DNA of 64,000 nucleotides, taken from the NCBI GenBank assembly GCA_964187785.1, contig OZ076411.1:26040001-26104000 (forward strand), in the 5' to 3' direction. Positions within the stretch are counted from its first letter, which is position 1. Each line of letters begins with the position of its first letter. Below the pieces are notes generated by a model, which saw nothing but the letters and a program-made list of their open reading frames with translations, was not told the origin of the DNA and made no database searches. This document shows positions 470-28,700 of the stretch, one piece after another. Source of the stretch: Amphiscolops sp. MND2022. Its lineage: Eukaryota. Both the position numbers and the translations under genes were made by a program.

Positions 470-1815
470 GTTACCATGGGTTGTCAGTACGGGAAGTTTG
501 AGCACACAAACAAATTCAATGAAAACTCATTCAAATCAGGGTTATTTCAGTTGAGATTTGTATATAAATGCGAAATGCAACATGAAACAGCTTGGTCTCA
601 TTGAATATAAAATGCTTTATTTTTTAATGCTTTAGTTAAATGAGTAAAGTTAGGGCAGCAGTTCAAACAAAATTTTCAAAGGAGTTCAAAATTTTCAAAC
701 CTCGAAAATGAAATGAGGCTGAAAATGTCTGAAAACATGCAAAATTTCAGATCAATAGAAACCTATCAAAAACGTAAAAAGCAACTTTCAAACTCTACAG
801 CTTTGGATACTAAGTGAGAGGTTGTTTGTACTAACTTGTTTGAGATAACTGGGTATGATGCGATTACTAGTATTATGGAAACCAAAAGGCTCCGTTTGAC
901 CGCTTGACAAAAACAGTTGCTAGCTACGATTCCCTGCAATTATCGATATATTACTGTCAAAAATTCCTCTCTCTTGCATTTCCAATGGCGTGAAGAGACA
1001 TTTGATTCCTTAATAGCCTTCATTTAGTGTATGGCACTTCCTGTAGCAGGTGATTGAACAAACATCATTTCACACCTTGTTGCATTAATTTAATCAGTCT
1101 CTCCCTTCATGCATCTTGTGTTGGTCTCAGTTACATCTCTTCCATGAAACTTGATCCTTGTTTCTGCTGACATTGTGATGATTGAATCACACGCTGAAAA
1201 AAATCAAGCTGACGATATCTGTTGAAACTGATCTTGCCGTTTCCTGTTGAGGATATCATTCCTTAAATCACCAGTAGATGAAGTTGAGAGAGCACCAAAT
1301 TGGGATACTTCTGACCAAAACAATCTTTTGAAAAAACTTTTGTTTGTTACCGGAAATGGGATGATTTTTAGAGGCTCAAAATGTTAAAGGTTAAAGATAC
1401 GTTATAACTTGCATTACTTAAAAGAAGCTACTACTTAGCACTGCTTTTCAGTTATTGATAACAAGGTTTGTTGGGTATAGCGACAACTAATGTGAAGCGA
1501 CAAACTCATATCAGGCGAAGACTCACATCAAATGCGAAAATTCGTCAACTCATTTCAACATTCAATGTAACCCCAAACATAATTTTTTTAGGTTGTGGAT
1601 TGATCGCCACCCCGCTTAAGCCTCAAATAGAGTAAAAGTCCTTCAGAGTGTCAAAGATTCTCTTTGAATAAATTCTCAATTTCACAGTAAATAAAAACCC
1701 AAAGGGACTTTTTTGAGCCAAAAAGGGTTTTTTGCTTTTATTCTCACCGGAAGTATCAATTACTTCGGACAAAAGGTCAAATTCAAATTTAGTGTTTTCT
1801 TTTGACAACATTGAT

Positions 1816-2241
1816 TGTTGCGGTGCAATACAAATAAGACTGAATTAAAACAAATAATAATAAGTCCGCTTGGCCGAATGGTTAATTCAGTTCGCTATGG
1901 GCATTATCGAGATCGCAGGTTCGATTCCCGGGACCGTCAAATATTTGGGAAAATACCCAAATATCCAAAATATCTCTGATTTTTGCAAATATGTATTTCG
2001 ATTAACCTTGAAATTGCGTAAAAAGGTCTTGCTAGCTTTTGTTTGTTAGTGTTTATTGTTGTTTGATAATATTTAAATAATTATTGTTCATTTGTCTGCG
2101 AAACGCAATAATTCTACTGTTATTTATATTCATTTGAGCCACGTTTTGACACGGATCTGACTGACATCCTATTCAAAAAATAAAGTATTGATTGCTTTGG
2201 GTTTTAACCGAACTCTAGAAACCGAATTCTAAAGTTTTACA
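1816..2241 (+). repeat. BEL/Pao 5' LTR (426 bp)
   Basis: Starts TGTTGCGG, ends TTTTACA; AATAAA at 2179-2184; matches 10393-10818. Confidence 0.97.
1871..1928 (+). promoter_or_regulatory. tRNA-type Pol III A box + B box inside the BEL LTR (second copy 10448-10505)
   Basis: A box TGGCCGAATGG (1871-1881) and B box GGTTCGATTCC (1918-1928), 36 nt apart. A 9-bp hairpin (1941-1964) and a T5 run (1980-1984) follow. Confidence 0.65.
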
Positions 2242-2258
2242 TGGTGGCCATAGAGAGG
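2242..2258 (+). promoter_or_regulatory. Primer-binding site of the BEL element
   Basis: TGGTGGCCATAGAGAGG directly follows the LTR-terminal CA. TGG complements tRNA CCA; TGGTGGCC resembles the complement of a tRNA-Ile 3' end (primer identity is inference). Confidence 0.8.
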
Positions 2259-3002: not shown

Positions 3003-3605
3003 ATGGTACGAATTTTGGCCGCAAGTTCTTTGCATCACGCAATTGAAACTATTAACCCCGAAAATCAGACAGCTATAAAAGAAAAAGTTTATTCCATTCC
3101 GGGCCTGAGCTTGAACATTAACGCAAAAAATCCTCAAAAAATTGTACAAACCCTGATTGAAAAGGATTTCAAAGACGAAAAAGAACTGATAATTTGGCAC
3201 GACGTCATTAATAACAGCATCTGTAAACATAAAAGCAACTTTTATCGTGCCTTGTCAGTAATTGACTTAGTAAATGTTCTGAAATCCTATCAACACAGAA
3301 TCAGGGCTCTTGTGTACTGCCAACGTGACCGAACGCCAGACATCTTTGCCGAATTACAGAAAACTAACATCCTAGTCTTGAGTATTGAAAAAGACCTCAT
3401 TTCATTGCGAAAGCAAAAAGATTCAGACTATTTGCAAAATTTGAAGGCATTACATCAGAGCCCCGATCTGGAATTGAAACATTTGCATACAATTTTGAAA
3501 AATGAAGATGATTTGTCTCAAATTACTGCCCGCAGTCGTCCCAAACGCCCCTCTAAACGCGCCCGTAAAGCAATAAAGAACACGTTGCCTGCTGCCAACG
3601 AGTAA
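3003..3605 (+). CDS. Accessory 200-aa ORF inside the BEL element upstream of gag; putative SGNH/GDSL-hydrolase-like fold with basic C-terminal tail
   Basis: Uninterrupted ORF between PBS and gag. VRILAASSL, SIPGLS, LIIWHDVINNS and KALHQ occur in the order of SGNH blocks I, II, III and V; the C-terminus is RSRPKRPSKRARKAIK. ORF is seen; fold is inferred. Confidence 0.65.
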   Translation: MVRILAASSLHHAIETINPENQTAIKEKVYSIPGLSLNINAKNPQKIVQTLIEKDFKDEKELIIWHDVINNSICKHKSNFYRALSVIDLVNVLKSYQHRIRALVYCQRDRTPDIFAELQKTNILVLSIEKDLISLRKQKDSDYLQNLKALHQSPDLELKHLHTILKNEDDLSQITARSRPKRPSKRARKAIKNTLPAANE

Positions 3606-3832
3606 ACTACCCCGCCTTTCGAGTTGTAGCTGTGTCCGGACTTAACTGACCGGTTGACGCTGCAACCCGCTTCCTCCTTTCCTTTCTGTGCTGTGTCCGA
3701 GCTTAACTGCTCGGTTGATGTTCAGAAGGAACTCCCACCCTAAACAGCAGCGTGTTCCTTTTTAATCTGTCATACACCGTGCGACCCATCGTGACTGTCT
3801 TCTTTTAGCCTAAACAAAAAAAAACAGGCAAG

Positions 3833-6800
3833 ATGACAGATTCCCAACACGAAAAAGTTCAAAAACTCCACGAAAATCGGTTGAAGGCGCAGACTGAATT
3901 GAATACCCTCCAACAAAAGATACTCGATTCCATTACAAATGGAGATCGAAGGGTTCGAGTCGAACGTCTTGTCAAAGAAACCGAAGATGCAATGACGAAA
4001 GCTTTTACCAGAAACAAACAGCTGATTACGCTTGCATCTAAAACTTCTGACTCGGAAACAGTTCAAGCCGACTTAGAAAAGTGGTTGCGAGAAGTCACGG
4101 AGCAAAATGACGAAATTTTGAGAAAAGCTCGTGAATACATCGACAGTTGCACTGAATCCGATGTAAAGTCCCACTCATCCGTCGGCACAGTTAACAAAAG
4201 CGCATCCAAAAGATCATCGACTTCTGGTAGAACGAAAACATCGAGCCAACGACAAAAAGACCTTCTTCTAGCAACGCAGCGACGAGAAGAACTAGAACGA
4301 CAAAATGCGAACGCCATTCGTTTGGCTAAACAGAAGCAAGAGGTCGCTCGAAAACAATTGGAACGCGAAAAAGAGCGGTTGGAAGAAGAACAAGCTCTCC
4401 AATTGGAAGAACTACAAGAAGAAAACAGAAGAAAACTTGCCGAAGCTAAGCTCACCGAATTGGAATTAACTGACGACTTGTCTCAAGTGACCGACGAATT
4501 TCATGAAACTCTGTCTCGGATTAGTAAACACTCGAAGCAAACCACGTCCCAGAGAGTGTCTGACTGGGTTAATGAAGTCAATGAACCTGATAGTGTTTCA
4601 AATCAACCGCAGACCAATACAGTCGATTTAAACAATGTACCTGGATCGTCGAACACCGCAGTCATTCTTGAATCAAACGATGTTGTTCGAATGCGACAAG
4701 CAACGCTAGAAATGAGATCATTAGCTGATGGTAATATTGGGCCGAGACAAAGCCAGATTCCCCAAATCGGCATTTCGTCTAATTCTACCATTCTGAGGCC
4801 AAACAGTACTCCACCTTCATTTGCTGCGATTAACCCACTGCCCATGTTTCAACTACCAACCGTGAGCACCACATCGAACACTGTTTCCTCCGTGACAGTA
4901 CCAGTAGTTAATCAGCAACCTCTGACTATGCTCTCGCAGGTCCAACCGTCTGTCGCTCCAACTACGACAAGGACTCAAGTCAACATTCCATCGAGCCATG
5001 TCATACCGAACTTGTCTGCTTGGACATTTCCGGCTCCGAGTAGCTTCCCCACAGTACATACTACAGTTCCGCAGCCTGTAAGACGACAAGTTATGCTACC
5101 GAGCACAACTGCAACACCGATCGTGACAACAACGGGGATTTTTACACCAGTTGTACCAATTCAAAGCGGAGGAACAACTTTCTATTGTAATCCGCTTGCG
5201 ACAACAACCCCATCAATGACTTTCCCGGTTCCACCGTCTACAACAGCCACAGTAAACGTTCCTTTTCCGACGTTTCCGCATACAGTTCAGTCAACCATTC
5301 CCCCTGTAACGCCAACTGCGGTTACTATCCAAGACCTTGCACAACTACTGACTGCTGCCAAAAAGGACCATCTTCCTGAGTGGAAACTAGAGCATTATAA
5401 TGGAGACCCACTGCAATGGCACGAGTGGATTGGACAATTTAGAAGTGCCATTGATTCCGCACCACTCTCGAACGATGTGAAACTCACGTACTTGAAAACG
5501 CTTGTAACTGGCAAGGCCAAGACAGCGATAGCTGAGTTTGCTTATTGCGGCACAATGTATCAAGAAGCACTTAAAACTCTCGAGCGTAAATTTGGCCAAC
5601 CACACGCTGTCGTAAGTGCTCACTTGGACAAATTGAGTGGCTTCCCACCGTTGAAAATGCACAACAGTGAAAACGTGATTGCTTTCTCTGCAACGATTTC
5701 GGCGTTGGTAGGAGTTTTTCGCTCCTTGAAGTATGAACACGACTTGTCAAGTGCAGCACTTTTGGGCCAAGCAGTACAGAAACTCCCCCCAAACATGAAG
5801 GAAGCTTGGTCTATGCACACTGTCAAGAAGGATTGGAGCCGGCCAACTCTCTTAGATTTTAACGAATGGTTGAAAGATAAGGCCGAGGCACACGAGAGGA
5901 TGAAAGCCTCAGCCACAAAACCCAAGAATGATGAAAGCGCGCCATCCGTTACTCGAACAAAAACTGGTGCAAAAGTTTTTGCCTCTGCTACCTCTAGCGC
6001 ATCTGCAAACGGAACCGGAACCAAGCCTAACCGAGTGCAACCAAACTGTATCGTGTGCAAAGACAACCATCCACTGTGGCGCTGTCGCGTGTTTCTTGAC
6101 AAAACGCCTACCGAAAGAGCAAAGATTGTTGCCGAAAACAAACTTTGTTTTTCCTGTCTGAAAAGAAACCATTCTTTCCGACAATGTCCGCAACCACGCA
6201 AGTGCAACAAAGATGGATGCAACAGCTCTCACAACACCCTGCTACATGGCGCAGAGAGAGTTTTCCAACCAAGAACAACACCGAAACCGTCCACTAACCA
6301 AGCAACTGGATCGCGTAGCCCCAAAATAACTGTGAACAAAGCTGGAGAGAGCTCCGGAGTTTGTTCCGTGAGCGATGTGAAAGGACTTCTTCAAATAACT
6401 GAAGTTGAAGTTCATACACCAACCACCTCCGTCAAAGTTTTGGCCCTGTGCGACTCCGCCTGCAGTCACTCTTGGATCTCCGAAGATCTCGCAACCAAGT
6501 TGAACGTAAAGGGCTTACCGACCAAACTAACTGTTCATGGCATCAATTCGCAACAAGTTGTTGACACTCAAATAGTTGAGCTTAAGTTGACGCCGGTTCA
6601 TTCGGGTGGCTCTTGCTCTACTTTTGATGTCAAACCTTACGTCAGAAAAAACTTGCATGTTGGAAACGATGTCATTGATGTTGACCAATTGAAACAACAA
6701 TACCCTCACTTGGAGCCCGTTGCTCTGAGCAAGTACAGCTACGGAGACGTCGAAATGATACTGGGTCAAGACGTGTTCCATTCAATCCGCCCATTGGAGT

Positions 6801-9800
6801 ATTTTGAATCCGACCGAAAAAATACTCCAATCGCCGTCCGATTACCGTTGGGTTGGGTTTTGAGTGGACCTCTGCCTTCGACTTCGGGACTCGTCTCGAC
6901 TTGCTTCAAAGCTGTCACGCAAAGTGAGAGTGACTCCAAGTTGGCCGATCAACTTCGGAGTTGGTATGAAATGGAGTCTTTTGCTGCCATGAAACAAGTA
7001 GACCCGCGCTCTGCTGCCGATGCTAGAGCGTCGAAGATTCTACAAGAAACAACATACCATGACGGATGCCGATATCAGGTCGGTATGTTGTGGGCTGATG
7101 ACGAGAGTAGTCTCCCGAACAACTATTTTTCAGCCTTAGTGCAATTGAAATCCCTTGAACGCCGACTCGAAAAAACTCCTGAACTGAAAGCGAGTTACGC
7201 TCAGACCATTAAAGACGACTTCGACAAGGGATACATCGTTCAAGTCGACAAGTCAGACTGTTTTAGAGTTGACAACCCGCGTGAGTGGTACCTACCGCAC
7301 CACCCAGTGTTTCACCCTCACAAGCCAGGAAAAGTACGCCGTGTACTCAATGGTGCAGCGAAATATCATGGTGTTTCACTGAACAGCAAACTTTTAACTG
7401 GTCCTGACTTGTTGCAAACGTTAATCCATGTGCTCATGCGATTCCGACAACATCCCTATGCCGTATCCGCTGACATCGAGGGAATGTTTTTACAAGTTGG
7501 TGTGATCCCTGAAGACCGACCGTCTCTTCGTTTTCTGTGGCGGGAGGACCCAGCAACAGATGTCGCTGTGTACCAATACGTACGTCACATTTTTGGCTCT
7601 AAGGATTCACCAACGTGTGCCAACTACGCGTTGCAACAGACTGCACGTGACAACCAAAACCAGTTCCATGAAGCCGCCAACAGTGTGGAAAACCATTTTT
7701 ACATGGATGATTATCTCGAGTCAAGCCCAACCGTCAACGAAGCAACCAAGAAAGCTCAAGATCTCGTTGAAATGTTAGCCAAAGGTGGTTTCAAACTAAC
7801 TAAGTTTGTCAGCAATGTTCCTAGTTTGGTTAAAAACGTTGACCCGAAATCTCAACCGCCTACCGACTCGACCGAGAAAGTCTTAGCAACAGACGAAGAG
7901 ACATCTCATGTATTGGGCTTGAAATGGAACCACAGTCGTGACACTTTGGTTGTCAGCAGAGGCACCACGCCTGACCTGAACCGACCAATTACACAGCGTA
8001 TTGTTCTTAGCTTAGTGTCCGCAGTGTATGATCCCATTGGTCTCGTCGCGCCATACACTGTAACTGCCCGCCTTTTGTTGAAAGACATTTGGCGCCTGAG
8101 CGGGCAACAATGGGACAACAATCTGCCTGACGACGTTAGCGAAAAGTTTCTTGAATGGGCCGCAGAACTTCCCAAGTTGAGTGAGATAACAATTCCGAGA
8201 TCCTACTTCCGCGGAACTATTGAAAACGTCGAGTTACACGTATTCGGAGACAGCTCCCAGGACGTCTTTTCCGCTGTTGCTTTCCTCCGTGCGAGAGTAG
8301 ACAGCAACGAAGGGACTGAAACTCAGTTAGCCTATGTCTTTGGGAAAGCTCGTGTCGCTCCGATGAAAGTGCTAACAATCCCGAAATTGGAACTCCAAGC
8401 TGCCCTCTTAGCAGCCCGACTTAAAGACGAAATCCAACAAGCGCTAACAGTACCAGTTGAAACAACATTCATGTGGACCGACAGTACAACCGTCCTTCAA
8501 TGGCTCCATTCCATTGACAAGAAACCCGTATTCGTCGCCAACAGAGTTGCCGAAATTCTTGAGTTGACGACGGTTGATGAATGGAACCACGTGCCAACAG
8601 CCGACAACCCGGCAGACGCGGGCACTCGCGGCCTGCCGGCAAACTCCCTTTTGAACAGTCCTTGGCTCAAAGGCCCCAAATTCTTGATGACTTCTGATTG
8701 GCCTTTCCAGCCGTCAGGAGAAATCTTGAAAACTAATTTGAAGAACATCGATTCCAGTGAAGTCAACACCAAGCCAGTCTATCAAGAAGCAACAGCGAAT
8801 ACCGCAAGTGTATCCTCCAATGTCCTAACTCTCGAGTGGCAAAAGTACAGCTCGTACGAGAAACTTTTGCGCATTGTAGCCTACATTTTGCGTGTTTTAC
8901 CGAAATTCTCTTGTAATAGAACCAAAACAGGAGCAATCACTGAAACAAAAAACCTGCTCAAGTCTCATCCGGTGAGCAGGCCTTCAATCATAAAAGATTT
9001 CTCCCCCTTCATTGGTTCAAACGGCCTTCTCCGTGCTCAAGGTCGAACAAAAAATCTGGAAGTTGCCAACTTCGATGTCAAGCACCCTATCTTGCTTGAC
9101 AGCCGACACCCTGCAGTTCGACTATTTCTAGAACATCTCCATGAGAAACATTATCATCAAGGCGTCGAATACTTGGGAGCCTTGATACAGCAGAAGTTTG
9201 CCATTGTAAAATTGAGAACAACATTGAGGACTATCCAAACCAGATGCGTAACGTGTCGCAAACGCAAAGCAGAGACGCTGACCCCGATAATGGCCGATCT
9301 GCCAAAAGAACGCCTGGCGTTTGCAGCGCGACCTTTTACAAACACTGGCTTAGACTACTTTGGCCCTTTCTATGTATCTGTTAAACGCTCCACGGAGAAG
9401 CGGTGGGGATTTCTCTTCACATGCCTGACAACACGCGCTGTCCATTTCGAAGTTGTGCCATCAATGGATACCAGCAGCTGTGTCATGGGAATTGAGAGAT
9501 TTGTTGCCCGTCGGGGCATCCCCTCCGTCATCTGGTCAGACAATGGGACGAACTTTGTTGCAACAGAGAAAGAATTACTCCAGAACGTTCTCAAGTGGAA
9601 CCATCAATCAATTGCCGAATCCATGGTAAAGAAAGGTGTCAACTGGAAGTTTAATCCTCCTAGTGCTCCACACCATGGCGGTGTCTGGGAAAGACTAGTG
9701 AGAAGTTTCAAGCATACTTTCTATGCGATACTCGGCAATAGACGCTTGACCGACGAAATACTAACAACTGTGTTTTGCCTTGTGGAGCAGAGCCTCAACG

Positions 9801-10228
9801 CTCGTCCGCTGGTTCCAGCAAGCGCAGATGCAACTGACTTGGATGCGTTAACACCCAACCACTTCTTGCTTGGAACAGCTGGCTCGTCTCTACCGTCCCA
9901 TTCTAACTGTGATTTCGACCACCGCAAGCGATATGCACGCGCCCAAGCTTATTCTGACGCTATCTGGAACAGATGGCTGAAAGAATACGTGCCAACTTTG
10001 AATCGTCGCTCAAAGTGGTCCTCACAGTCCGCCAGGCAACTGAAAACCGGAGATCTAGTTTGGATCGTGGAACCCACAAGCCCGAGAGGCTATTACCCTC
10101 TCGCGCGCGTCGTCAAACTCAACTTTGGCAGCGATGCCGTCGCCCGCTCTGCCGAAGTTAAGACCACGTCCGGAAACCTCGTCCGTCCAGTCGTGAAACT
10201 AGCCCCAGTCCTTCCTTCCCCCGAATAA
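3833..10228 (+). CDS. BEL/Pao gag-pol polyprotein (2131 aa)
   Basis: Coiled-coil N-terminus and P/T/S-rich linker; DUF1759-like gag (KLEHYNGDPLQWHEW); three Cys/His knuckles (CIVCKDNHPLWRC, CFSCLKRNHSFRQC, CNKDGCNSSHNTLLH); protease ALCDSACS; RT YMDD; Pao-type RNase H (ELHVFGDSS); integrase (H..H..CVTC, DYFGP, SDNGTNF, GGVWERLVR); DUF5641-like tail. Confidence 0.97.
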   Translation: MTDSQHEKVQKLHENRLKAQTELNTLQQKILDSITNGDRRVRVERLVKETEDAMTKAFTRNKQLITLASKTSDSETVQADLEKWLREVTEQNDEILRKAREYIDSCTESDVKSHSSVGTVNKSASKRSSTSGRTKTSSQRQKDLLLATQRREELERQNANAIRLAKQKQEVARKQLEREKERLEEEQALQLEELQEENRRKLAEAKLTELELTDDLSQVTDEFHETLSRISKHSKQTTSQRVSDWVNEVNEPDSVSNQPQTNTVDLNNVPGSSNTAVILESNDVVRMRQATLEMRSLADGNIGPRQSQIPQIGISSNSTILRPNSTPPSFAAINPLPMFQLPTVSTTSNTVSSVTVPVVNQQPLTMLSQVQPSVAPTTTRTQVNIPSSHVIPNLSAWTFPAPSSFPTVHTTVPQPVRRQVMLPSTTATPIVTTTGIFTPVVPIQSGGTTFYCNPLATTTPSMTFPVPPSTTATVNVPFPTFPHTVQSTIPPVTPTAVTIQDLAQLLTAAKKDHLPEWKLEHYNGDPLQWHEWIGQFRSAIDSAPLSNDVKLTYLKTLVTGKAKTAIAEFAYCGTMYQEALKTLERKFGQPHAVVSAHLDKLSGFPPLKMHNSENVIAFSATISALVGVFRSLKYEHDLSSAALLGQAVQKLPPNMKEAWSMHTVKKDWSRPTLLDFNEWLKDKAEAHERMKASATKPKNDESAPSVTRTKTGAKVFASATSSASANGTGTKPNRVQPNCIVCKDNHPLWRCRVFLDKTPTERAKIVAENKLCFSCLKRNHSFRQCPQPRKCNKDGCNSSHNTLLHGAERVFQPRTTPKPSTNQATGSRSPKITVNKAGESSGVCSVSDVKGLLQITEVEVHTPTTSVKVLALCDSACSHSWISEDLATKLNVKGLPTKLTVHGINSQQVVDTQIVELKLTPVHSGGSCSTFDVKPYVRKNLHVGNDVIDVDQLKQQYPHLEPVALSKYSYGDVEMILGQDVFHSIRPLEYFESDRKNTPIAVRLPLGWVLSGPLPSTSGLVSTCFKAVTQSESDSKLADQLRSWYEMESFAAMKQVDPRSAADARASKILQETTYHDGCRYQVGMLWADDESSLPNNYFSALVQLKSLERRLEKTPELKASYAQTIKDDFDKGYIVQVDKSDCFRVDNPREWYLPHHPVFHPHKPGKVRRVLNGAAKYHGVSLNSKLLTGPDLLQTLIHVLMRFRQHPYAVSADIEGMFLQVGVIPEDRPSLRFLWREDPATDVAVYQYVRHIFGSKDSPTCANYALQQTARDNQNQFHEAANSVENHFYMDDYLESSPTVNEATKKAQDLVEMLAKGGFKLTKFVSNVPSLVKNVDPKSQPPTDSTEKVLATDEETSHVLGLKWNHSRDTLVVSRGTTPDLNRPITQRIVLSLVSAVYDPIGLVAPYTVTARLLLKDIWRLSGQQWDNNLPDDVSEKFLEWAAELPKLSEITIPRSYFRGTIENVELHVFGDSSQDVFSAVAFLRARVDSNEGTETQLAYVFGKARVAPMKVLTIPKLELQAALLAARLKDEIQQALTVPVETTFMWTDSTTVLQWLHSIDKKPVFVANRVAEILELTTVDEWNHVPTADNPADAGTRGLPANSLLNSPWLKGPKFLMTSDWPFQPSGEILKTNLKNIDSSEVNTKPVYQEATANTASVSSNVLTLEWQKYSSYEKLLRIVAYILRVLPKFSCNRTKTGAITETKNLLKSHPVSRPSIIKDFSPFIGSNGLLRAQGRTKNLEVANFDVKHPILLDSRHPAVRLFLEHLHEKHYHQGVEYLGALIQQKFAIVKLRTTLRTIQTRCVTCRKRKAETLTPIMADLPKERLAFAARPFTNTGLDYFGPFYVSVKRSTEKRWGFLFTCLTTRAVHFEVVPSMDTSSCVMGIERFVARRGIPSVIWSDNGTNFVATEKELLQNVLKWNHQSIAESMVKKGVNWKFNPPSAPHHGGVWERLVRSFKHTFYAILGNRRLTDEILTTVFCLVEQSLNARPLVPASADATDLDALTPNHFLLGTAGSSLPSHSNCDFDHRKRYARAQAYSDAIWNRWLKEYVPTLNRRSKWSSQSARQLKTGDLVWIVEPTSPRGYYPLARVVKLNFGSDAVARSAEVKTTSGNLVRPVVKLAPVLPSPE

Positions 10229-10392: not shown

Positions 10393-10818
10393 TGTTGCGG
10401 TGCAATACAAATAAGACTGAATTAAAACAAATAATAATAAGTCCGCTTGGCCGAATGGTTAATTCAGTTCGCTATGGGCATTATCGAGATCGCAGGTTCG
10501 ATTCCCGGGACCGTCAAATATTTGGGAAAATACCCAAATATCCAAAATATCTCTGATTTTTGCAAATATGTATTTCGATTAACCTTGAAATTGCGTAAAA
10601 AGGTCTTGCTAGCTTTTGTTTGTTAGTGTTTATTGTTGTTTGATAATATTTAAATAATTATTGTTCATTTGTCTGCGAAACGCAATAATTCTACTGTTAT
10701 TTATATTCATTTGAGCCACGTTTTGACACGGATCTGACTGACATCCTATTCAAAAAATAAAGTATTGATTGCTTTGGGTTTTAACCGAACTCTAGAAACC
10801 GAATTCTAAAGTTTTACA
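10393..10818 (+). repeat. BEL/Pao 3' LTR (426 bp)
   Basis: Same length and sequence as 1816-2241; followed by TSD TTGAT. Confidence 0.97.
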
Positions 10819-11584
10819 TTGATAAAACAAAACATTGAAACAGGTAAGATTCGAACCTCCGCCACAGCTCTAGTCGGTTCTTTTCTTTGAGAAGCCACGA
10901 ATTAAAATGGTTCGGTAAACGTTCGAGTAACGCAAAAACGCGGTCGTTTTGATATTTGTTCAATGTGGGTTGAACTTGATCATTGGATTTTGCTAATCTT
11001 GGATTTTTTTGGAAGCTGTTTTTTGCATGTATTTGGGCTATGATCACCTCCGTCTACTTTATTTGTTTCGTGGAAATGATAAAAAATTATTCAACGTGGA
11101 AAAAGCAAATTTTGTCCCATGTTTGGAAACCCGGTGGCAACCATCCTCCGAGTTCATTGGTTTTCGTATTCCATTGCGTAGTTTTTCATACTGGTTCCAG
11201 TTAGTAATGTCCCATAGAGGCTCGTATAGTTGGACATCCGTGAGAAGCGGAATCTCCTCCGACGCGACACCAATTCGAATAAAAAAGGGCCTATTGGCGG
11301 GTGGGGGCCTGTCCCGGGGTCGACAGGGCGCATCCTTTCATGTTCTCCAAGTTCATAGCTAAGGGCTAGCCAAATACACAAATTTGGTTTTAGTAATCAG
11401 GGACAAGAAACGCAATCCTCATAGTAACAAATGATAACAGTTCTTAATGACAGCACAATTAACAGTAGTTAATAGTTTTATTTTCCCTAACGAAGGTTAG
11501 CGAAGAATTTTTTCAAGTTCTTTTTCCTTCACCAATTTCTGTCATAACTTCCATAACTTAACGTCTATTGATGATAATGACTTT

Positions 11585-12492: not shown

Positions 12493-13053
12493 TGTTGACG
12501 AAAGAATTTAGTCAAATTTCTTGAGCTACAAAACTTAAACTTTTATTTTATAGAAGCTCAAAATTGAAACGAAACAATCTAACCTGATATGTTAGCAATC
12601 TTCAAGTTGTTCGAGCAATGAAATGAATGATGGTGCTAGCTGACTCGAAATTATTGTTGATGTTCTACCTTTCAATTTCAACCTGTCGAAAGTATCGTAA
12701 AAATCAAACATATGGCTCCCATCTATGACTTCAAAATTGGATTACGAAGTGATTCTGAAGTTCATGATTATTCCCTTGAAGTATCACATTTTTTCATGAT
12801 GGTGTGATGGAATATTTTTTCCAGAATATTCGATTGTAAAAGTCAAGGAAATGCTGATCCGCCTTCTTCCAAAGTCACAATCCTTTAATAAATGTCATGG
12901 TTACCTTTTGGAGTATAAATACCCGGTGCTTTCTACAACTTTTCACAGCGCTCATCAACGGAAATAGCCTTCAAATCTAATAGTCAAATTAACTTTTTCA
13001 AATTGTCTTTCCAGACGAAAGTCTGCCCTGTTCAGCCACGTCCTAGCCTAATT
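12493..13053 (+). repeat. Copia 5' LTR (561 bp)
   Basis: Aligns to 17726-18158 with about 22 mismatches in a ~160-nt block (eye count) and ~128 extra bp. Confidence 0.85.
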
Positions 13054-13067
13054 GGTTTTGGGCCCAG
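13054..13067 (+). promoter_or_regulatory. Copia-type PBS (half initiator tRNA-Met primer type)
   Basis: GGTTTTGGGCCCAG is one mismatch from the GGTTATGGGCCCAG PBS of animal copia elements. Confidence 0.8.
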
Positions 13068-13305
13068 TGGAAGGCAATTAAGAACCTGTTGCCCAGTGAA
13101 AGGCAATTAAACTGTTTTTTTGTTGTTGTTGTGGAACCTCTGGTCGGCGAAACCGCAACGAATATCAGTGTGATTGCGAATGATGAAGAGTATGGGTACG
13201 GGAATTCATTTGAGCACAATTTACTCGAACCGACTCTTGTGATCAAGACTGCCTTGGGACGGCACACTAAGAAGCTAAAGTTGAAAACTGTGTCTTTCAG
13301 TGTAA

Positions 13306-16300
13306 TTGTTTATACAATCAGGCGTTTCAAAAGTCAAAAATGGAAATAATCTCAAATGGCTCTGCTTCTCGGGACTAACTGAGGACTACCCAATATGGTG
13401 TACCAGATTTCAAGCCTTTGCTCAAATAAGAAGCCTATTCGACACACTCACTGGCGATGATCGACCACCAGCCCAATCCGCGCGGCTTGGGAATGCCGCA
13501 ACTGATGAGACCCGCGCTGCTCACGACGCAGCTCAAGAAGGTCATAGACATGGTGTTGATGACATCGAGAAACGTAAAAACACACTGTGGTCTTACCTTG
13601 CGATGGTTCGCGATTCAACAAGCCTGATGTTGATCAGGCATAATTGTATTGACCGCAAAGACGTCGGTGATGGTCACAAGGCATGGGGGCTTCTACACGA
13701 AAGGTTCCGAAGCAAAGAAACAGTGTTTGCTGTCAGTGTGATGAGGCAACAGGCTCGCTGGATGCTGAAAGAAGACGAGGCACTCCACAATTACTTTATA
13801 AGAGCCCGAGAGCTCTCAAATCGCCTGGAACAAGCCTGGAACATCTATCAGAGCCACTGCTCAATGCGATGGTACTCAATGGCTTACCTGAGCGCTATGA
13901 GCACTTCGTGGTGCAAGAGCTTCAATCCAGCTGATAGTTTCGTGGAGCTTGGAACACTGCTGACCATCTACGAAGAGAGTCGTCTACAACGCGAGTCTGT
14001 GGATGATGTGAATTCACATATGGTGATGACGTCCAAATAGGCCAGGCCAAAGCACAAGTCAAGAATATAGAACGCGGCGCCAAAGTCAAGTTCAGGACAA
14101 CTAACATGCAACTGTTGCGGCATGAAATGTCACATGAAAACTGAGTGTTATAACTTTTTCAAGGTAGCCTTTTTGCTTACAAAAAGTACTTTCAACTTTT
14201 TCTCTTATAAGTTATAAGAAAGAAAAAGTTGAAAGTACTTTTTGTATGCAAAAAGGCTACCTCGAAAAAGCATGTAACAGAAAGGAGCTTAAAGGAGGCA
14301 GTACGGAAGCTTAGCATCAAGTCAGGACAATCAAGCGAGCCAAAAACTAACGACCTAGTAGTAGACTCAGGAAATACAGACCATGTAATAGTGAACAAGA
14401 ACTGGTTCAGAAACTTGAAAAAAGTAGATACTACAGTTACCATTCCTGATGGGGTAACACAAAAGTCCAAGGAATAGTAGAAGTCGAGGTCGTAGCTCAA
14501 GACGTAAAAAGAAGGACTAAGCCTTTTGCCTTACGAAAAGCCTTGTATGTGCCAGGATACCGAACAAACTTGACCTCAGTATCCAATATAGTAGACAATG
14601 GACCTAATATTGGTCATGACGCAAAAAACAGTTTCCTTTGCCTCAAATGCAAAGAGAAATTCTCCATCAAAAGAAATGGATACCTTTTCTTCCTAAGTAC
14701 GACCCCATAGCAAGGAAACCACTGTACTAATTTGAGTGGGGGGTCCAACGAAGCACAACTATGGAACAAACGTTTCGTACATGTAAACTACAGAGACCCA
14801 AAAAGTTCTCTGTCGAAAAACCTGATGGAGGTGGATAAAAAATGCAAAACTTGCTGCTTAGCCAAAATAACCACTACGTCTGTCCCAAAACAAAATGGAA
14901 AAGAAGCATCGAAAACTGGTGAAAGAGTTTTCAGCGATGTTGTTCGACCGATCACCACATCAAGTAAAGATGGGTTTAGATACTTCGTCACGTTCATTGA
15001 CGAGGACAGTTCGCATGCTTGTGTGAAGTTCATGCGTCACAAAAATCAAGTTCTGCAAATGTTCAAAACGTACATCACTGAATGCGGTACGCCAGGCATA
15101 CTTCGCTCTGACATTGGAACCGAGTATTCAAACAAACTTTTACGAACTTGTGTTCCAACAACAAAATCAAACACGAATACATCGTCCCTGAAACCCCGGA
15201 ACAAAATGGTGTCGCAGAGCGATACAATCGAACTATTGTAGAGACTGCTCGAAGTCTTTTAATCTAGTCAAAACTTCCGAAAAGCTAATGGCTCAGAGCT
15301 GTAGAAACTGCAGCCAATGTAAGAAAACTTGTCAAAAAAACAAAGAAGAGAATACCACTTTCGAAACATTTTGGGGCAGAAAACCCAAAACAGATCATTT
15401 GAAAGTTTTTGGTTGTTAAGCATACGTAAACAACCGAATGCGTGAAAAATTGAAATTCAATCCGAAAGCACGGAAACATGTTTTCGTTAGCTACGATGGC
15501 CACAGTACGGCCTACCTGTTGCAAGACATTGGAACTAGAAAAATGACACGAGCTCGCAACGTCGTGTTCAATGAAAAGAGAGTAGTTGGTTTCACCAACG
15601 AAACAAGAGAAAACGAAAATGATCATCTTCTTTTCGATGTAACTTTTGACGATGAAATTGAGCAAAGCAAGACCGAAATTGCAGAAAAAACAGAAGTGAA
15701 GGACGAGGGTCCTGAAGTTGAAGGGAAAGTTGAAAACGCCACTGATGAAGAAAACTCATCGAGTTCCGAATCTGAAATTTATGTTGACACTACTAGCCCG
15801 ATAATTCCTAACTAAGAAGTACAGGATCAGGATGTAACGCCCATCAGGTCAGATTAAGTATTCCAGGCACAACGGTTAAGACTTCCTGTCCTACAGGAAT
15901 GCTTTCAAATAACGAGTGGTGTTCAGAAAACTCCTCAGGTCGTAAAACCAAAAATCAAAGTACCCAGTAAATTGAAACTAACTGGACAACACTTGAAAAT
16001 ATCTATCCCATTGAGCGAAAAAGTGCTAGATGAGAGATGGGACAATTACTATGAAATGAAAGATGCAAAAAGGGCATCTAAGGAGCTAAAGCGAGAGGAG
16101 AGGTCCTCAAAGATATGGCCAAAGTTACAACCATAACTCAACATTCTTTGCGAAAGAAAATGAAACCTACAATCAAGCAATAAGTTCTTGTGAAAAAAAC
16201 GAAATGGCTGCAAGCAATGCAGGATGAGCTTAAGTCTTTGAACAAAACTAACACATGGACGTTAGTTGAGCGTCCAAAGAACAAAAATGTAATCCCGGGG

Positions 16301-17682
16301 AAATGGGCTTACAAAGTCAAAACTAAAGCCGACGGAAGCCTTGAAATTTACAAAGCGCGTAATGTAGGTTTTGAGCAATTTGAAGGCTTAGACTGTTCAG
16401 AAATGTTCGCGCCAACGAGCAAACATTGTCTTTTCGAATCATTCTTCCGCTAGCAGCGAAAGAAATCTTTACGCTAAGGCAAATGGATGTAAAGTCATGT
16501 TACTTACATCCACTAATCAAAGAAGAGATATACCTCGAGCAACAGACTGGCTTTGATGAAACAGACCGCTCGGGAAACAAGCTTGTCTGTAAATTGAACA
16601 AATTATTCTACGGACTGAAGCAGGCCGATAAAAATTGGTATGAGGAGGTAGCGAGCTTCCCCTCATACAACAAAACTTTAGTCGTAGCAAGAATGATTAC
16701 TGTCTTTTTATTGAAAAACAAGAAAAAAGAATGTTGTACGTTGTTCTAAGTTGGGTAGATGATCTAGTAAAAGCAGGTAGCAACAATGAGGATCTAGAAA
16801 AGTTTTAAAAAATTCAAGATGGACGATCGAGGAACACTCGAATGGTTCTTAGGCATGCAAATAAGTCAGGGAAGAGCCAAAATCTCTTGACCAGAAAACG
16901 TATATTGAGAGCGTCATAGAGAAACTTAGCATGCAAGACAGCAATCCTTCGAAAACGCCAGCAGAGAACAATCTGAGATTAGTTATGGCAACTGATAATT
17001 AAACATTGGTTGATGAGAGACTATACAGAAGTCTGGTAGGCTCCATAGTATACATTGCTTAGCAAACTAGAGCAGATATAGTATGGATCGTCAATGTGTT
17101 CTCTCGATTCATGGACAAACCAACTAAAATTAACTGGCTGGCTGGCAAACGTGTCCTCCGCTATCTTCAAAACTGGAAGTCACTCAAGCTGGTCTACTCA
17201 CAAGACAGTGACATCAATCTACATGCAGACAGTGATCCAGACTGGAGTGGCGACCATGATGACAGAAGTTCGACCACTGGCAACTTCTTCAAGCTTGGAT
17301 TAAGTGGGGAAGCAGTAAGCTGGCAAACTAAGAAGCAGCAGACAGTGGCACCATCATCATGTAAGCAGAATATTAAGGTCTAGCTGCTGCAGTGCGAGAA
17401 GCAACTTTCTTGCGTTCACTCTTGTGTGAAATGGGCTATGAGCAATCACAGCCAAGCATCATTGTGGATGACAATCAGATTTGCATCAAGCTGGCAACTA
17501 ACTCCGTGATGCACAAGCGATCGAAATATATTGACACGAAGTTCTACTTCATACGGGAGAAAGTTGATGACAATTCAAATCAACTAGTCTATATTCCAAC
17601 TGATCAACTGGCACCTGATCTGTTGACCAAGGCATTTCTACAAGTGGAAGTGGAGCAACATCGAAAACAACTTTTGGGTTAA
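13306..17682 (+). pseudogene. Frameshifted/stop-riddled Copia gag-pol
   Basis: gag FSGLTEDYPIWCTRFQAF; knuckle CNCCGMKCHMKTEC; protease VVDSGNTDH; integrase VFSDV..LRSDIGTEY; RT WLQAMQDELKSL, QMDVKSCYL, WVDDL; RNase H ADSDPDWSGD..RSSTTG, HKRSKYIDTKFYFIRE. Confidence 0.92.
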
Positions 17683-17725
17683 ATGCAGGGTCTTACTACG
17701 ACATCCGGAACAACCTGAGTGGAGA

Positions 17726-18158
17726 TGTTGAGGAATTGAACTTAGTCAATTTTTTTGAGCTACAAAACTTAATCTTTTATATTACTAGTAGCTGAAATTC
17801 GAAAAGAAACATCTGACTCCCATTTACGACCTCAAAATTGGATTATGAAGCGATTCTGAAGTTCATGATTATTCCATTGAAGTATTACATTTTTTCTTGA
17901 TGATTTGATGGAAAATTCTTTCCAGAATATTCGGTTGTTAGTGTCAAGAAAATGCTCATCTACTTTTTTCCAAAGTCCCCAATCTTTAATAAATGTCATG
18001 TTTACCTTTTGGAGTATATATACCCGGTGCTTTCTACAATTTATCACAGCGCTCATCAACTGAAATAGCCTTCCAATCAAATAGTCATATTAACTCCTTT
18101 TTCTAATTGTCTTTCTCAAACGAAAGTCTTCGCTGCTCAGCCATGTCCTAGCCTAATA
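17726..18158 (+). repeat. Copia 3' LTR (433 bp)
   Basis: Follows the PPT; ends cctagcctaata; followed by TSD ACATT. Confidence 0.85.
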
Positions 18159-21100
18159 ACATTCAATAGTCCTTTTGGAATTACTCTGTTTCGTTGCTAC
18201 TGCGCATCTTGTAATGAAACTTGCAAGATGTCTTGTTGAAAAATGCCTTCAATTGCAAGGTCTTGCAATAATATCTTGCAGGATCATTGTAAGAATTGCA
18301 TTTTTTCCAAGCAGCGAATTGAGTAGACGTTCCACTAAAGGCCAGTGAAAGAAGGTTTCGCTAATTTGACATTACGTTATTATGTTGTTACGCAGTTATG
18401 TTGGAACGCTATGATAAGGCAGTGTTTCCATAGTGAAGAGACCATACAAACACAGTGTTGTTTGTTCCATTTGAAAGTTTGTTTCATCGCTTTTGACGTT
18501 CCAGGTCGTGCACAAATTTCAACTTGAAGAAAGTTCCTAGTTTGTTTCTTTCCAACTAGTTTCCATAATTTCTGTTCCATTTTGTTCTAAACAATCAGTT
18601 TTTCTGTTTTTATTTTTCAACAAAAAAATGTCGATGATGAAAACCCTGTTGATTTCAGTATTCGCTTCATGTTTAAACGTGGAGTTTTCTTCGCATTTTT
18701 TGGAAATAAGAAATTTGGGCAAATGTCTTAAAATTTCAATTCCCATAGAGTTCGTGAAGTTATGGAAACTTGGTAATTGGCCTATTTTGACACAAACTGT
18801 GTTGTTGATAAAATTAAAGATGCCCTAATGAGAAACTCCTTTCAATAGCTCTGAAAATGGTAAACAAGTTTCACGTTTGAAAAATCATCTGGAAGAAGCA
18901 ACTAGAAAAACTGAACTTCTTTGGTGCGAATTTTTTTAACAGCGCCAAGTGTATATTTGTGAACAAATTTTGTTATTGGAAAAAGGAGTTTATTATCCGG
19001 AATTGCAAAAACTGACAACAATGTAACAAAAACTATCTTGACAATTGCTGGAGTGGAAAGATGCTACAGAAGCGGAAAATTTTGCAGCAGTAAGCTTTTT
19101 TCGGACTCTCAAGTTTTTTTTCATAACATATTCAGATGTTTTTCAGTCCAACGTTCTCGCAATTTTTAAATTCCCAAAACTTCCCAAAAAAGGAAATATT
19201 CACAATTTTGGTTCTAGTTCACACAGAATTATGAAAGCCCACTCGTCTTTTCTGCAAACAAAAGTATGCCAAGGTACTTTAATATTCCAATCATTCTTTT
19301 TCATGTTCACACCTACAGCAAAACCAAAAACTTGTTCAAAAATGGCAAAAATCGTTCAAAAGAAGGAAAACTTTGGCACTTTTCTGTTTCAGTTTCATTC
19401 CTAATCAAAAATTTAAGATTTTTGTCAAAACATGTAATAAATAGGTGAATTATCAACATTATCAGTTTTTAGTGATAACCTCGAAAACATCCAAAATATG
19501 ACCAGGGTTGAGTGAAAAAACAATTATGGAAATAGATTGACATCTCTTGGTTCTCATTTCTGCCGACAAGCTTGCTTAGCAGCCGAGTTCTTCATGATTG
19601 AAATATGTGACTTTTCAGACTCACGGAAATATGCAACGAGCATACAAAGTTGCTTGAAACGGTCAAAATTTTGCAATTCTTGGCAAATTTTGACATTTTT
19701 CAGGCATTTTGTGACATCAAAAATTTGGATTTTTCCTCTTTTCGAAACGTTTGAGGGAAAAATTGATTGTTTTATTTTTGAATAGGGTCGACACTACGGA
19801 AACTTTCTCCTTTACGAAGGATACTTAGTTGCTAAATTATTCGTGAAGATTCTAACCTTCAAACACATTTGATAACTACTAAATCGTGATTCTTTTGGAT
19901 TTTTTGAATTTTTTGGGTGTTGTTTATAGACATTTTTTCTACAAAAAACAAAATCCTGTTCACTTTTGAACTCTGTGGTTTTTCTAAATCTAAGAAACTT
20001 CTAAGAAAATTTGTTCAAAAGTTGCCTCAAAATGGTGGAAAAATGAGAAGGTGTAGAATTTTCATGTAGTTCAATGTCATTACCGTGGTACTATTTTGCT
20101 CCTCGTTGAAACGTACAAAATAGTTATCTGTTTGACCGTTGGAATCAGAAGGTGTTCTAGTTTTCAGAAACGTTCAAAACCAGTACAAAATTTGCGTAAA
20201 AACAGTCAAAAACTTTATAGCATTTAAGTTTCTTGAAATCATTCTCGGTGCATTTTTTGAAAGATTCTCTTCTTTTGAAACAAGTTTAAAGATCTCGACG
20301 TATTCTGTGTGTACGAATGTTATAAGCTTACAAGTCAAAAAAACAATTCCAATCAGAATAGACTGAATGTGTAAAAACTGTATTTTCTGACGTATCTTGA
20401 AAATGAGGCAGATTGTTCAATATTGCCTCTGTGGCTTATTTAGGCAGGTTGTTAGAAAATACAAGAATGACTATTTTTTCGCAATGGTTTTTACAAAGTG
20501 TAAAGGTAAAGATATTGAGGCAATGGCTCTACCACACTCCCGTCTTTTTAAAGGAGGAAAGTGGAAACAAGTATACAATTATTTATACTTCTATAAAAAT
20601 GAAAATTTGGTTACAAAGATACTCAAAAATGTCAGGAGTAACGAATCACACACTGAATTAACTGCTAGCACTATATATAACTATATAACACATCATCATT
20701 TAAAAAAAGTCAAGAAATAAACTAGAGCAACGATTGGATTAAATAACGTTATAAAAAAATTTTCAAAAGTTTGTACTGCAACTTTGAGCTTGGGATCTCG
20801 ATTACGCTTGGCAAGCTACCATCTTCTTCCTCGTTTGACTCCTTCTCGACTTTAGTTGAAATTACATTGTTGTCCCATCGATCCGGTGTCCTGGAGTCTC
20901 TCACCAAACTGCATTACAGTGCAGCTGCAAGCTTTTTCTGAGCGTTTTGCGGGAATCAGGACAGGAAATCTCGGACATCGAGACGCGTGCACTGAATTCA
21001 TTCCCCTTTGATGTCGACTGCCTTAACTTCCTTTGAAGTTGAAATCTTGATTTCCGCAGTTTTGCGTCTTGGCAAGTTAAAGGGGTCAATTAATTCCCAC

Positions 21101-25400: not shown

Positions 25401-25550
25401 GAGTTAGTGTGTCTCTCCTTCAATAAGTAGATATGGGCGGAAAATTTTATCAGGAAAAATCAAATCTTGAATGACGAAAAATAACAGTTGAGGACATTTG
25501 TATGCTAAGTCGAATCTACAGTATTGCGACGTGGAAAATTAAGTGCTGTG

Positions 25551-25788
25551 TGTGACATAACGTCAATACTACTACCTGCACAATTGCCGTAACATACGGA
25601 TCTAGACAGAGAGACCATTTTTGTTTACCAACATAGAACTCTAATTGCTGTCGATTTGTGTCATTGTGTTGTTCCATAGATATTGATCATTAATATTGAT
25701 TAGATACTGAAGATTTGTTGAAAAAGAAGATATAGTTTATTCTTTTAGAGTAAAGACCATTTTTACCGTATAGACCGAGATTATCACA
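25551..25788 (+). repeat. Gypsy 5' LTR (238 bp)
   Basis: TGTGACAT..ATCACA; aligns without net length change to 31601-31838. Confidence 0.92.
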
Positions 25789-28700
25789 TGGCGTAGTAGC
25801 AAAATTTATTTCTATCGCAAAAACCCAAATTTAATCGACCAAATACCAATGACGAGAACCAAGAACAATATACTGCTACCGTACCGTGAGGACAACGGAC
25901 TCGCCAGTAAAAAAACTATACACTCCTAAAGAATGGACCGAACGATTACGACACTACATAAAAGGAATTTACAACATCGAAATAAAACCAGCTCTATCCG
26001 GAGAAACGATACCAACAAGTAACGAATGAACGACAAAAGAATCCGAGATAAGACAAGATTTTATCTGGGGAGCGCGAACTTCGGCAATTAAAAGAATAGA
26101 AACCATTACCAAAGGAGAATTTAACACAGATTCCGATACCATCAATACAGAAAAACTCAACCAACTATTCAAAGTTTTTTACATGCCAAAACGAAACTTC
26201 TACTACAGCAGAGGAGATTTCCTCTGGGTGGAACAAGAAGGAAATGAGACACCGGAAGAGCACTGGCGAAAATTAGTATCCCCAGAAAAGAATTGCGAAT
26301 TCAAAAACATCAAACAAGAAGATCTACTAATATCAAAATTCATTACCAGCATAACCGATAAGAAACTACGGAAAAATCTCATTCGTGAAAAAACACTAAA
26401 TCTGAAAAGCAAAATGAATCTAGTAACCCAAGACAGCTACGAAAGAAGACATAAACCATCAACAATACCGCCATCACTGGCGAAAGAAAAAGAAATAAAT
26501 GAAGAACCGAACAAAAAATACAACCGCGGAACAAACAAAACTACCGAAAAATGCCGAAACAGCAACGAAGAACAATAACCGTGGATTTTGCGGACAGCAA
26601 AACCGGTCACCATCACATAAATGCCCGGCTAGAACGTAAGAATGTAACAACTGCCACAAAACGAGACAGTTCGCGAGAGTGTGTCGCAGCAAAACCGATA
26701 GCACAAAAAAACAAAAAAATTACTACCTTGAAGAGACATACAACGAAGAGGAAGAAAAAGAACCGGAAGAATTACAACAAGTCACGCAAATCAACAGGGT
26801 ACTACCAGACAAAAATGACAATTACGGGATCAAACAAAAAATCAACAGCAAATATCAAAATTTCACCTTCGATACCGGTTCTCCGGTCAAAATAATGCCA
26901 ATCAACCTGAACTCTACGACCAAAAAGATATTAAACCGTTAAAAAAAGATATCAAAAACGCAATAAAAACCCTCGGAAAAATATGGGCTGATATCGAATA
27001 CAGCGGGAAAAAACAATCGTGATCGCACAAAGAAGCGACATCACACCATTACTGTGAATGGGTGTGAATGGGCTGAAATAATTACCAATCACCATTAACA
27101 AAATCCAATTGGACGAACCTACCACTCAATCGGAAGCCATCCACACGAAATTCAACAAGTTATTTGAAACAAACCATACAATCAATAAAATGGAAGTGAA
27201 TATTCAAATAAAACCAGGATGTTACCCAATCCAACAAAGAGCCACACCGATACCGTGTCACCTACAAAAAGACGTAAAAAGTGAACTAGACCTATTAATA
27301 AAAATCGGGCATCTCGAACGACTAGAAACAGTCGAAGAAGACTGTTTTGTATCACTCGTAGTAATTACAGTGAAAAAAGACAAGACTGTGAAAATCGCAT
27401 TGGACGCCGGAAAACTCAACGACAGCTGTGTGAAGAAAAGACCGCAAATGCCAAATATGGATGAATTACTGATCCCAATATCTGCCGAATTATCCAAGAG
27501 TGACCGTGGCATACCCAGACGGAATCAGACCAAACAAAGAAAAATCCGATGCGATAAATAAATTAGAACCACCAACGAACACCAAAAGTCTTTTCTTGGA
27601 GCCATACAATATTTTGCAGAAATTATACCGAACCTGTCCGAGAAAACAGACAACATGAGACAATTACTCAAGAAAGGGACAAATGGGAATGGCGAACCGA
27701 CCGAAACTCAGATTTCAACAAAATAAAGCAAGAACTAACGACACTACCCTGCCTGGCAAACTACAATGGTAGCAAGGACAACATCGTTACTACAGACGCG
27801 TGCAAAACCGGCTTAGGAGTAGCACTACGGCAAAAACAAGGAAGCGGAGAATTAAAACCAATTGCCTTTATCAGCCGCTACCTAAGCGACGCCGAAATAC
27901 TCCATCGGAGATTTAGAATTATTAGCCGTTGTTTGGGGCTTGGAAAGATTCCGATTTCACTTATACGGTAAACAAGTTCAACTATTCTCGGACCCCCAGC
28001 AATAGAACCCCTTCTAAAACGAAACAAGATGAACAAACAATACAGTGCACGGCTAACACGAATGTTTGACAGATTGAACCATTTTGACATCTGCTTAAAA
28101 CACACTACCTGCAATGAAAATAAATTCACGGACTTCATTAGCCGAAATCCTGCGGAAAATCAAGAACCGGAAGGAAACTACGAAGAGGTGTTTGTTATTA
28201 ACGCCACCGCGGGGCTCGCAAAGGCAAACGCCCGAACAGGACGTATTTTCGACCAATCAAACGGCGCGGATACGGCCTATGAAGTGAATGATACGCGACG
28301 CTACCAAACAAACAAAAGCCATATTGATTCAAATAACCGCATACAAAAGTACTCACCTGCAAACGACCATTCAAAAATGAATAAGAATGAGAACAACGCA
28401 TGTTTCTTTGGAATCGACGGACAATTACGCCACCACTGGGGTGCAGACGATGATTTTAAGGTCATCGTAAACAGAAGAGACAAATCACTCGAATTGCGGA
28501 GCTAGTGAGAAGGAGAGTGGAATTGGCGAGACCAGGCGCAATGAGACCACACTGGAATAAAAACCTGAGCCGGGAATTCTACATACCAAGAAGACCCGAA
28601 GAAGATGAAAGAAGAGAAATCAAACGAGTTGACATTCAACTGAGGAGAAAAATTAGAGAGTCCCACATTTGCGTAGGATATTTCCAAAGTTTCGGAGACG

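Follow-up and report, generated by a model that had tools for sequence, protein, structure and literature searches.

A small gene with a predicted SGNH fold at the head of BEL/Pao, LINE and Gypsy retrotransposons, and the hairpins linked to it

The BEL/Pao element and its upstream gene

The window analysed here, 64,000 nucleotides of contig OZ076411.1 from Amphiscolops sp. MND2022, contains an LTR retrotransposon on the forward strand. A 5-bp target site duplication (1811..1815 on the left, 10819-10823 on the right) flanks two LTRs of 426 nt, the 5' copy at 1816..2241 and the 3' copy at 10393..10818, which run from TG to CA and are identical; judged by this identity, the window copy is very young. 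The primer binding site (PBS, 2242..2258) adjoins the 5' LTR. A 14-nt part of it occurs 1135 times in the host genome (G000; 1.07 Gb in 1929 contigs) versus 5 times for the reversed control, and the genome search with this part identified no priming tRNA. Gag-pol is one open frame of 2131 aa (3833..10228, forward strand) with matches to DUF1759, RT, Peptidase_A17 (PF05380, the Pao peptidase/RNase H), integrase and DUF5641. The element has LTRs, a PBS and a single gag-pol, and since DUF1759, RT, Peptidase_A17 and DUF5641 occur together there, it belongs to BEL/Pao. Near aa 1702, its gag-pol is about 23 residues shorter than that of a relative, L042.

Between the PBS and gag-pol lies a further gene, here called ORF0 (3003..3605, forward strand). 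It encodes 200 aa: a domain with a predicted SGNH fold (aa 1-172), followed by a basic tail whose Arg/Lys-rich part (aa 177-192; 3531..3578) is a candidate RNA-binding peptide or nuclear localisation signal. The initial annotation described an intact ORF of this size in this position in an element with identical LTRs, and quoted four motifs in the order of SGNH blocks followed by a basic tail; all of this is borne out by the sequence and its translation. Two hairpins with UUNNNU hexaloops follow on the same strand, one just after the ORF0 stop (3636..3657) and the other between the first and gag-pol (3697..3718). The UUNNNU-hairpin pattern is found at these two places (3636 and 3697) only within the window.

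Inside the 5' LTR, a tRNA-like pair of A-box and B-box (1871..1928, forward strand) reads as Pol III promoter-like; it is not a tRNA gene, and ARAGORN found no tRNA in the LTR. The 3' LTR has its copy at 10448-10505, and many related BEL copies have a B-box-like motif ahead of ORF0. The annotation had grouped this cassette with the ORF. We found no link between them: the cassette was not seen upstream in three of the four LINE carriers and both Gypsy carriers checked. Searches of the LTR and spacer with Rfam and ARAGORN gave no match. LTRs derived from tRNA are described for the non-autonomous Helenus elements in PMC10886601.

Elsewhere in the window there are two older, degraded LTR elements (12500-18160 and 25550-31850; repeats 87% and 91% alike), which look Copia-like and Gypsy-like by eye and have no ORF0 match. 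Host genes were assigned by eye only: an intronless GalNAc-transferase-like ORF (33149-34912, forward strand), a TRP-channel-like ORF (43924-46188, reverse strand) and dynein heavy chain-like exons (38300-63600). A direct repeat whose two copies are identical over at least 300 nt occurs at 54346-54645 and 55402-55701, 1056 nt apart.

Relatives of ORF0 were sought in the host genome, where 150 matches of 58-100% identity were scored from 3508 candidates. Counted by hand, 115 of these 150 are free of internal stops; of the best 30, 25 are open. The expectation that young copies retain the ORF thus holds. A BEL gag lies downstream on the same strand at all 50 loci examined, the window included (the 30 closest and 20 at 57-71% identity). 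Among 39 intact copies, pairwise dN/dS (NG86) is 0.26, 0.21, 0.11, 0.09 and 0.14 in bins of rising dS, with 0.11 at dS 0.3-0.7 and about 0.1 out to saturated dS. For the first 200 codons of gag, four bins lie at 0.15-0.19 and another, which holds two pairs, at 0.61. Purifying selection on ORF0 is as strong as on the gag N-terminus; ORF0 is a selected gene and not a chance ORF.

The family is large. A profile of ORF0 retrieves 834 cluster representatives at E <= 0.001 (clusters at 50% identity), and the sole name seen for the 20 family proteins looked up is ‘hypothetical protein’. Across families that share about 35-40% identity, ORF0 keeps its length and its start position, and in intact loci it stands alone with about 190-250 aa; no fused or longer form turned up among 8000 candidates, a weak negative. 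Of 46 pattern matches in viral contigs, none was confirmed as carrying the family. In the window element, seven AUGs precede ORF0. Removal of ORF0 by splicing was considered as a general mechanism and rejected: a strong donor-like site such as that at 2976 is present in only two of 41 loci (L001 and L003). Within the 50 loci of the gag comparison (L001-L050), ORF0 and gag give discordant synonymous divergences for one and the same pair, and even close copies have unlike 5' leaders; together this suggests recombination between subfamilies.

Predicted fold and active site

AlphaFold2 models ORF0 with a pLDDT of 95.5 and a pTM of 0.87 when given 104 diverse family sequences. This model supersedes a first one, from 53 close sequences (pLDDT 75.5), which had flavodoxin-like matches in Foldseek; a wide structural search placed SGNH enzymes first already with the 53-sequence model. 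With the 104-sequence model, the top Foldseek match is a GDSL lipase (E 8.6e-4, TM 0.49). The best matches in the wide search are GDSL/SGNH enzymes (Z 10.5, rmsd 3.6, 152 aligned, residues 1-173), and a repeat search reached Z 10.7 to GDSL enzymes. No flavodoxin or response regulator is among the 50 matches listed by the wide search. The OSK domain of Oskar (PDB 5A4A) is present at Z 8.5, and enzymes rank above it. The ZfL2-1 esterase (4C1B) is absent from the matches listed in any search, which is no proof of unlikeness. For some rows the family assignment comes from titles. The SGNH-like fold proposed in the initial annotation is thus supported by structure prediction and fold searches, and the ORF0 product is predicted to have a three-layer alpha/beta SGNH fold.

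In sequence comparisons, none of the 104 family members matches a Pfam SGNH family, PDB sequence and profile searches with ORF0 give no SGNH match, and the ESM Atlas gives no usable match. Aligning the ORF0 family by hhalign with a second, canonical SGNH family (described below) scores like a reversed control. The SGNH call rests on fold and motif order, since no sequence or profile search detects SGNH.

Motif order can be followed across the family. The conserved residues, with counts among 104 members, are A7 (94), S8 (95), G34 (96), W65 (98), H66 (99), D67 (96), N70 (87), N71 (96), Y105 (97), H151 (99) and E157 (90); position 6 is G or A. The SGNH blocks appear in order as Ser S8 (block I), Gly G34 (II), Asn N70 or N71 (III) and His H151 (V), and the most conserved polar residues of the family fall at these four positions. 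In the 104-sequence model, S8 stands at the start of the helix that follows strand 1, and H151 lies ahead of the last core helix. Block III is predicted to be helical, a point against the mechanism proposed below. The annotated blocks stand as an order of Ser, Gly, Asn and His; the block V Asp and the Gly of GxND in block III do not. In place of the catalytic Asp the window has K148, and the five commonest residues in column 148 are K, R, Q, S and A. According to PMC10792757, Asp stands three residues before His in 23 of 30 SGNH structures, and a main-chain oxygen replaces the acid in five solved ones. H66 lies four residues before N70, a match in spacing only to N195 and the transposon-specific H191 of ZfL2-1; at the place expected for a counterpart of its partner Ser (S228) there is no conserved Ser (Y105/C106).

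Carriers and linked hairpins

The annotation had proposed that an LTR lineage acquired an SGNH module. BEL elements do carry ORF0, but the proposal is too narrow, as LINE and Gypsy elements are also headed by it. Forty host-genome loci, picked among the tabulated matches to three distant family members, comprise 20 BEL, 18 LINE and 2 Gypsy elements, and ORF0 is 5'-most and on the same strand in all 40. The BEL carriers among them have a pol 27-74% identical to that of the window, while in the LINE carriers ORF1 is separate (of PHD or C1 type, where its type is recognised) and ORF2 is of the APE-RT kind. One accessory gene family is common to LTR and non-LTR elements. Linkage to BEL, which the 50 gag-bearing loci uphold, does not extend to a single BEL clade: ORF0 trees interleave BEL and LINE copies, and a BEL-only clade is rejected with p-AU 0.008 (36 rows, LG+G4) and 0.0002 (29 rows, mixture model). 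These tests were run on quick trees with long branches, after 27 and then 34 of 63 rows had been dropped (near-duplicates and unassigned rows, plus four more long-branch rows in the second test).

Eighteen metagenome loci add one BEL-like gag, two full LINEs, four LINE-type ORF1s and two cases after a PIF1/GIY-YIG ORF; nine have no class. In the PIF1 cases, L082 (2-2425, 3762-4209) and L083 (ORF end only), the family member is downstream of a PIF1 helicase and GIY-YIG ORF, possibly in a Helitron-like or other DNA element. As the best host-genome match of one metagenome query is only about 40%, other species probably carry the family.

Prevalence was estimated from elements drawn by element marker, not by ORF0: 20 BELs from PF05380 matches, 20 LINEs and 2 Gypsy elements. 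The BELs, which fell outside the BEL clade of the window, include one full ORF0, one fragment, five with a second SGNH ORF in the same slot (one copy broken) and 13 with none. Among the LINEs there are four members of the ORF0 family, two of that second, stand-alone SGNH family, one canonical ORF1-type esterase and 13 with none, many of which may be 5'-truncated. ORF0 is present in neither Gypsy element. In the BEL clade of the window, the 19 carriers among 19 loci make a circular count, because those loci were picked by ORF0 similarity. The module is common and, with 13 of 20 sampled BELs lacking any, dispensable; two SGNH types fill one slot.

The second family (L141, L142, L143, L144 and L145 in BELs; L160 and L161 in LINEs) is stand-alone, canonical in its GGN and DxxH motifs and placed before gag or ORF1. 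It has weak Lipase_GDSL_2 matches (E 4e-4) and a PDB SGNH match (E 4e-5). In L143 the ORF is in frame with gag-pol, and L141 has a stop at that junction. Relatives often form same-strand pairs about 7.9-8.3 kb apart in the host genome (C5:30771547/30779470; C10:20164660/20172583; C2:45783761/45791683), spaced as if each ORF lay inside one of the two terminal repeats of an element. The LINE with the canonical ORF1-type esterase (L167, 1750-2685) has GDS, GGN and DGVH ahead of ORF2.

The annotation had counted the twin hairpins of the window with the ORF, and several lines of evidence support that they belong with it. The 130 nt after the stop have a mean folding z of -3.4, with z <= -3 in 9 of 20 loci versus 1 of 116 same-locus control windows. 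A UUNNNU hairpin follows the stop in 28 of 49 loci; the count is 30 of 226 in control windows and 4 of 49 on reverse strands. Nine of the 49 loci had been inspected before the motif was defined. By class, it is present in 16 of 22 BELs, 11 of 19 LINEs, neither of 2 Gypsy elements and 1 of 6 others, and it precedes gag in only 1 of 12 BEL loci without ORF0. In the clade of the window, with loci chosen by flanks only, at least one hairpin is found in 54 of 54, and two or more in 45.

The stems vary by two-sided G-C/A-U swaps around a near-fixed loop. Over 32 distinct forms, 111 of 128 inner cells pair, compared with a mean of 92.7 and a maximum of 104 in 5000 shuffles, a test inflated by the relatedness of the sequences. 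In 21 copies, the mean difference of the hairpin region from that in the window is 4%, while synonymous divergence in ORF0 is mostly 0.1-0.7. Hairpins lie 80-670 nt upstream of the next start. Behind the second SGNH family there are two or three copies of a hairpin of its own, with a different loop.

Known SGNH modules and the proposed role of ORF0

We are highly confident that ORF0 is selected as a protein, that it has the SGNH fold with Ser, Gly, Asn and His and without Asp, that it ends in a basic tail, that it heads BEL, LINE and Gypsy elements, and that a conserved stem-loop follows it.

Several known systems resemble this arrangement in part. SGNH esterases are found within the ORF1p of CR1/L2/RTEX elements and of Penelope-like elements, ZfL2-1 being an example (PMC3905857). 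Like ORF0, the ZfL2-1 esterase has an SGNH fold, lies upstream of the RT gene, is basic and carries an arginine-rich peptide. It forms part of an ORF1p with a coiled coil and has a full Ser-His-Asp triad as described there, whereas ORF0 is separate, precedes a complete gag or a PHD-type ORF1 and is without the Asp; its basic peptide is C-terminal, and no similarity to the Pfam SGNH families is detectable in its sequence. LTR elements with an SGNH ORF are no novelty as such: PMC5408684 describes a GDSL ORF3 in rotifer Vesta LTR elements, as well as in Athena/Terminon elements. Vesta and Athena share with the present case a stand-alone SGNH ORF in an LTR element and a pool of ORFs common to retroelement classes, a sharing published for rotifers (PMC5408684 and PMC6431247). 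The Vesta GDSL is a third ORF beside gag and pol, in rotifer-specific retrovirus-like lineages, and is shared with Penelope-like elements; ORF0, unlike it, is 5'-most, occurs in BEL/Pao, Gypsy and APE-type LINEs, and has a linked hairpin. SGNH cargo with unproven function, as for ORF0, is also reported in work on amphibian Ngaro elements (bioRxiv 10.1101/2021.08.05.455354) and the Helitron-borne texim (PMC4021074); unlike ORF0, the Ngaro SGNH follows the recombinase and texim was captured from a host gene. In OSK (PDB 5A4A) the fold is used for RNA binding and the triad is lost, whereas ORF0 keeps Ser and His. We found no published SGNH in BEL/Pao, stand-alone 5' SGNH ORF or linked hairpin in a search whose reach stopped short of most subscription journals, supplements and Repbase; the one paper uniting SGNH, LTR and BEL names SGNH in a reference only.

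Arginine-rich peptides that recognize hairpins are familiar from lambda N/boxB and Tat/TAR. In ORF0, too, a basic peptide is encoded beside a short hairpin with a conserved loop; there is no homology, and the ORF0 tail is a candidate for such binding. The lambda N/boxB pair is cited in PMC3905857, whose authors propose that the arginine-rich peptide of ZfL2-1 binds a structured RNA element. They describe the esterase as a slow enzyme that binds liposomes through surface charge.

We propose that ORF0 and the hairpins form an accessory cassette put before gag or ORF1 by retrotransposons of different orders. The ORF0 protein would be translated first from the element RNA, and its arginine-rich tail would bind the hairpins in cis, possibly with help from the SGNH surface. 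The family has a median pI of 10.4, and 91 of 104 members have at least six K/R among 12 consecutive residues within the last 60 aa. Docking of the RNA-protein particle on membranes of negative charge could then fall to the basic SGNH domain, which may also hydrolyse acyl groups slowly through Ser and His, an activity like that measured for the esterase of the ZfL2-1 LINE. ORF0 would then be a minimal stand-alone version of a ZfL2-1-type esterase, carrying its own target hairpin, and a protein that tags its own RNA, whatever the Gag or ORF1 beside it, would leave the cassette free to move between classes. For this mechanism as a whole, with hairpin binding in cis, membrane docking and portability from class to class, we put the chances a little short of even. 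Against it stand the 21 of 49 carriers, both Gypsy loci included, without a UUNNNU hairpin, and the report that the ZfL2-1 esterase, in isolated form, failed to bind single-stranded RNA (PMC3905857). A hairpin between two ORFs could also serve translation of the second ORF. The evolutionary extension is held more tentatively, as something that could well be wrong: a self-addressed protein-RNA cassette would have moved repeatedly between BEL, Gypsy and LINE elements, with at least two unrelated-looking SGNH families, each with its own hairpins, competing for the slot.

The main rival to the cassette is translation restart, which we judge unlikely though deserving of weight: ORF0 would be a trans-acting esterase or lipid-binding helper, and the hairpins would merely restart ribosomes at gag or ORF1, a step required in every two-ORF arrangement. 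This reading fits hairpins that directly follow the stop, with the next start 80-670 nt further on, as well as their near absence from BELs without an upstream ORF (1/12) and the conserved active-site residues. The wide variation in distance to the next start does not. Moreover, the loop is held across BEL and LINE elements while stems vary, and the second SGNH family has another loop, a pattern more in keeping with recognition by a cognate protein than with a generic ribosome signal.

Counter-defence and OSK-like roles are less likely. In the first of these roles, a nuclear or cytoplasmic protein would counter silencing or deacylate host factors, and its tail would be a nuclear localisation signal, whose classical type the ORF0 tail resembles. 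For it speak the usefulness of ORF0 to element classes that are unrelated but share a host, its patchy distribution on the BEL tree and its high diversification (834 clusters at 50% identity). Yet selection is strongly purifying, not diversifying, a purely trans-acting suppressor has no need of a linked hairpin, and the ZfL2-1 esterase is reported to have shown no peptide deacetylase activity (PMC3905857); we regard this role as improbable. A still slimmer chance is given to a catalytically dead, OSK-like RNA-binding domain bringing element RNA to germ plasm. The OSK match at Z 8.5, the missing Asp and the basic protein speak for it, but enzymes rank above OSK in the fold matches, and OSK has no triad (PMC10792757), whereas more than 90% of the ORF0 family keep Ser and His.

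That ORF0 has another flavodoxin-like fold, its SGNH motifs being coincidental, seems very improbable: the shallow-alignment model did give flavodoxin-like Foldseek matches and sequence support for SGNH is absent, but both programs rank SGNH enzymes first with the better model, the most conserved polar residues occupy the four SGNH positions, and a recognisable SGNH family uses the same slot. A neutral passenger, open only through the youth of an element with identical LTRs, is refuted by dN/dS of about 0.1 out to saturated dS and by length and start kept across families at about 35-40% identity.

Ever since the LINE, Ngaro, Penelope and rotifer cases, it has been a puzzle why retrotransposons repeatedly gain SGNH esterases. 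The present family adds BEL/Pao to the SGNH carriers and, being invisible to Pfam, would be missed by annotation pipelines. ORF0 is a small stand-alone protein, with many diverged families in one genome, under selection and with a short candidate RNA ligand, so binding, catalysis and membrane association are directly testable in vitro. If the proposed cassette is real, it would be a module for RNA localisation or anti-defence, independent of Gag and ORF1, that serves LTR and non-LTR elements alike.
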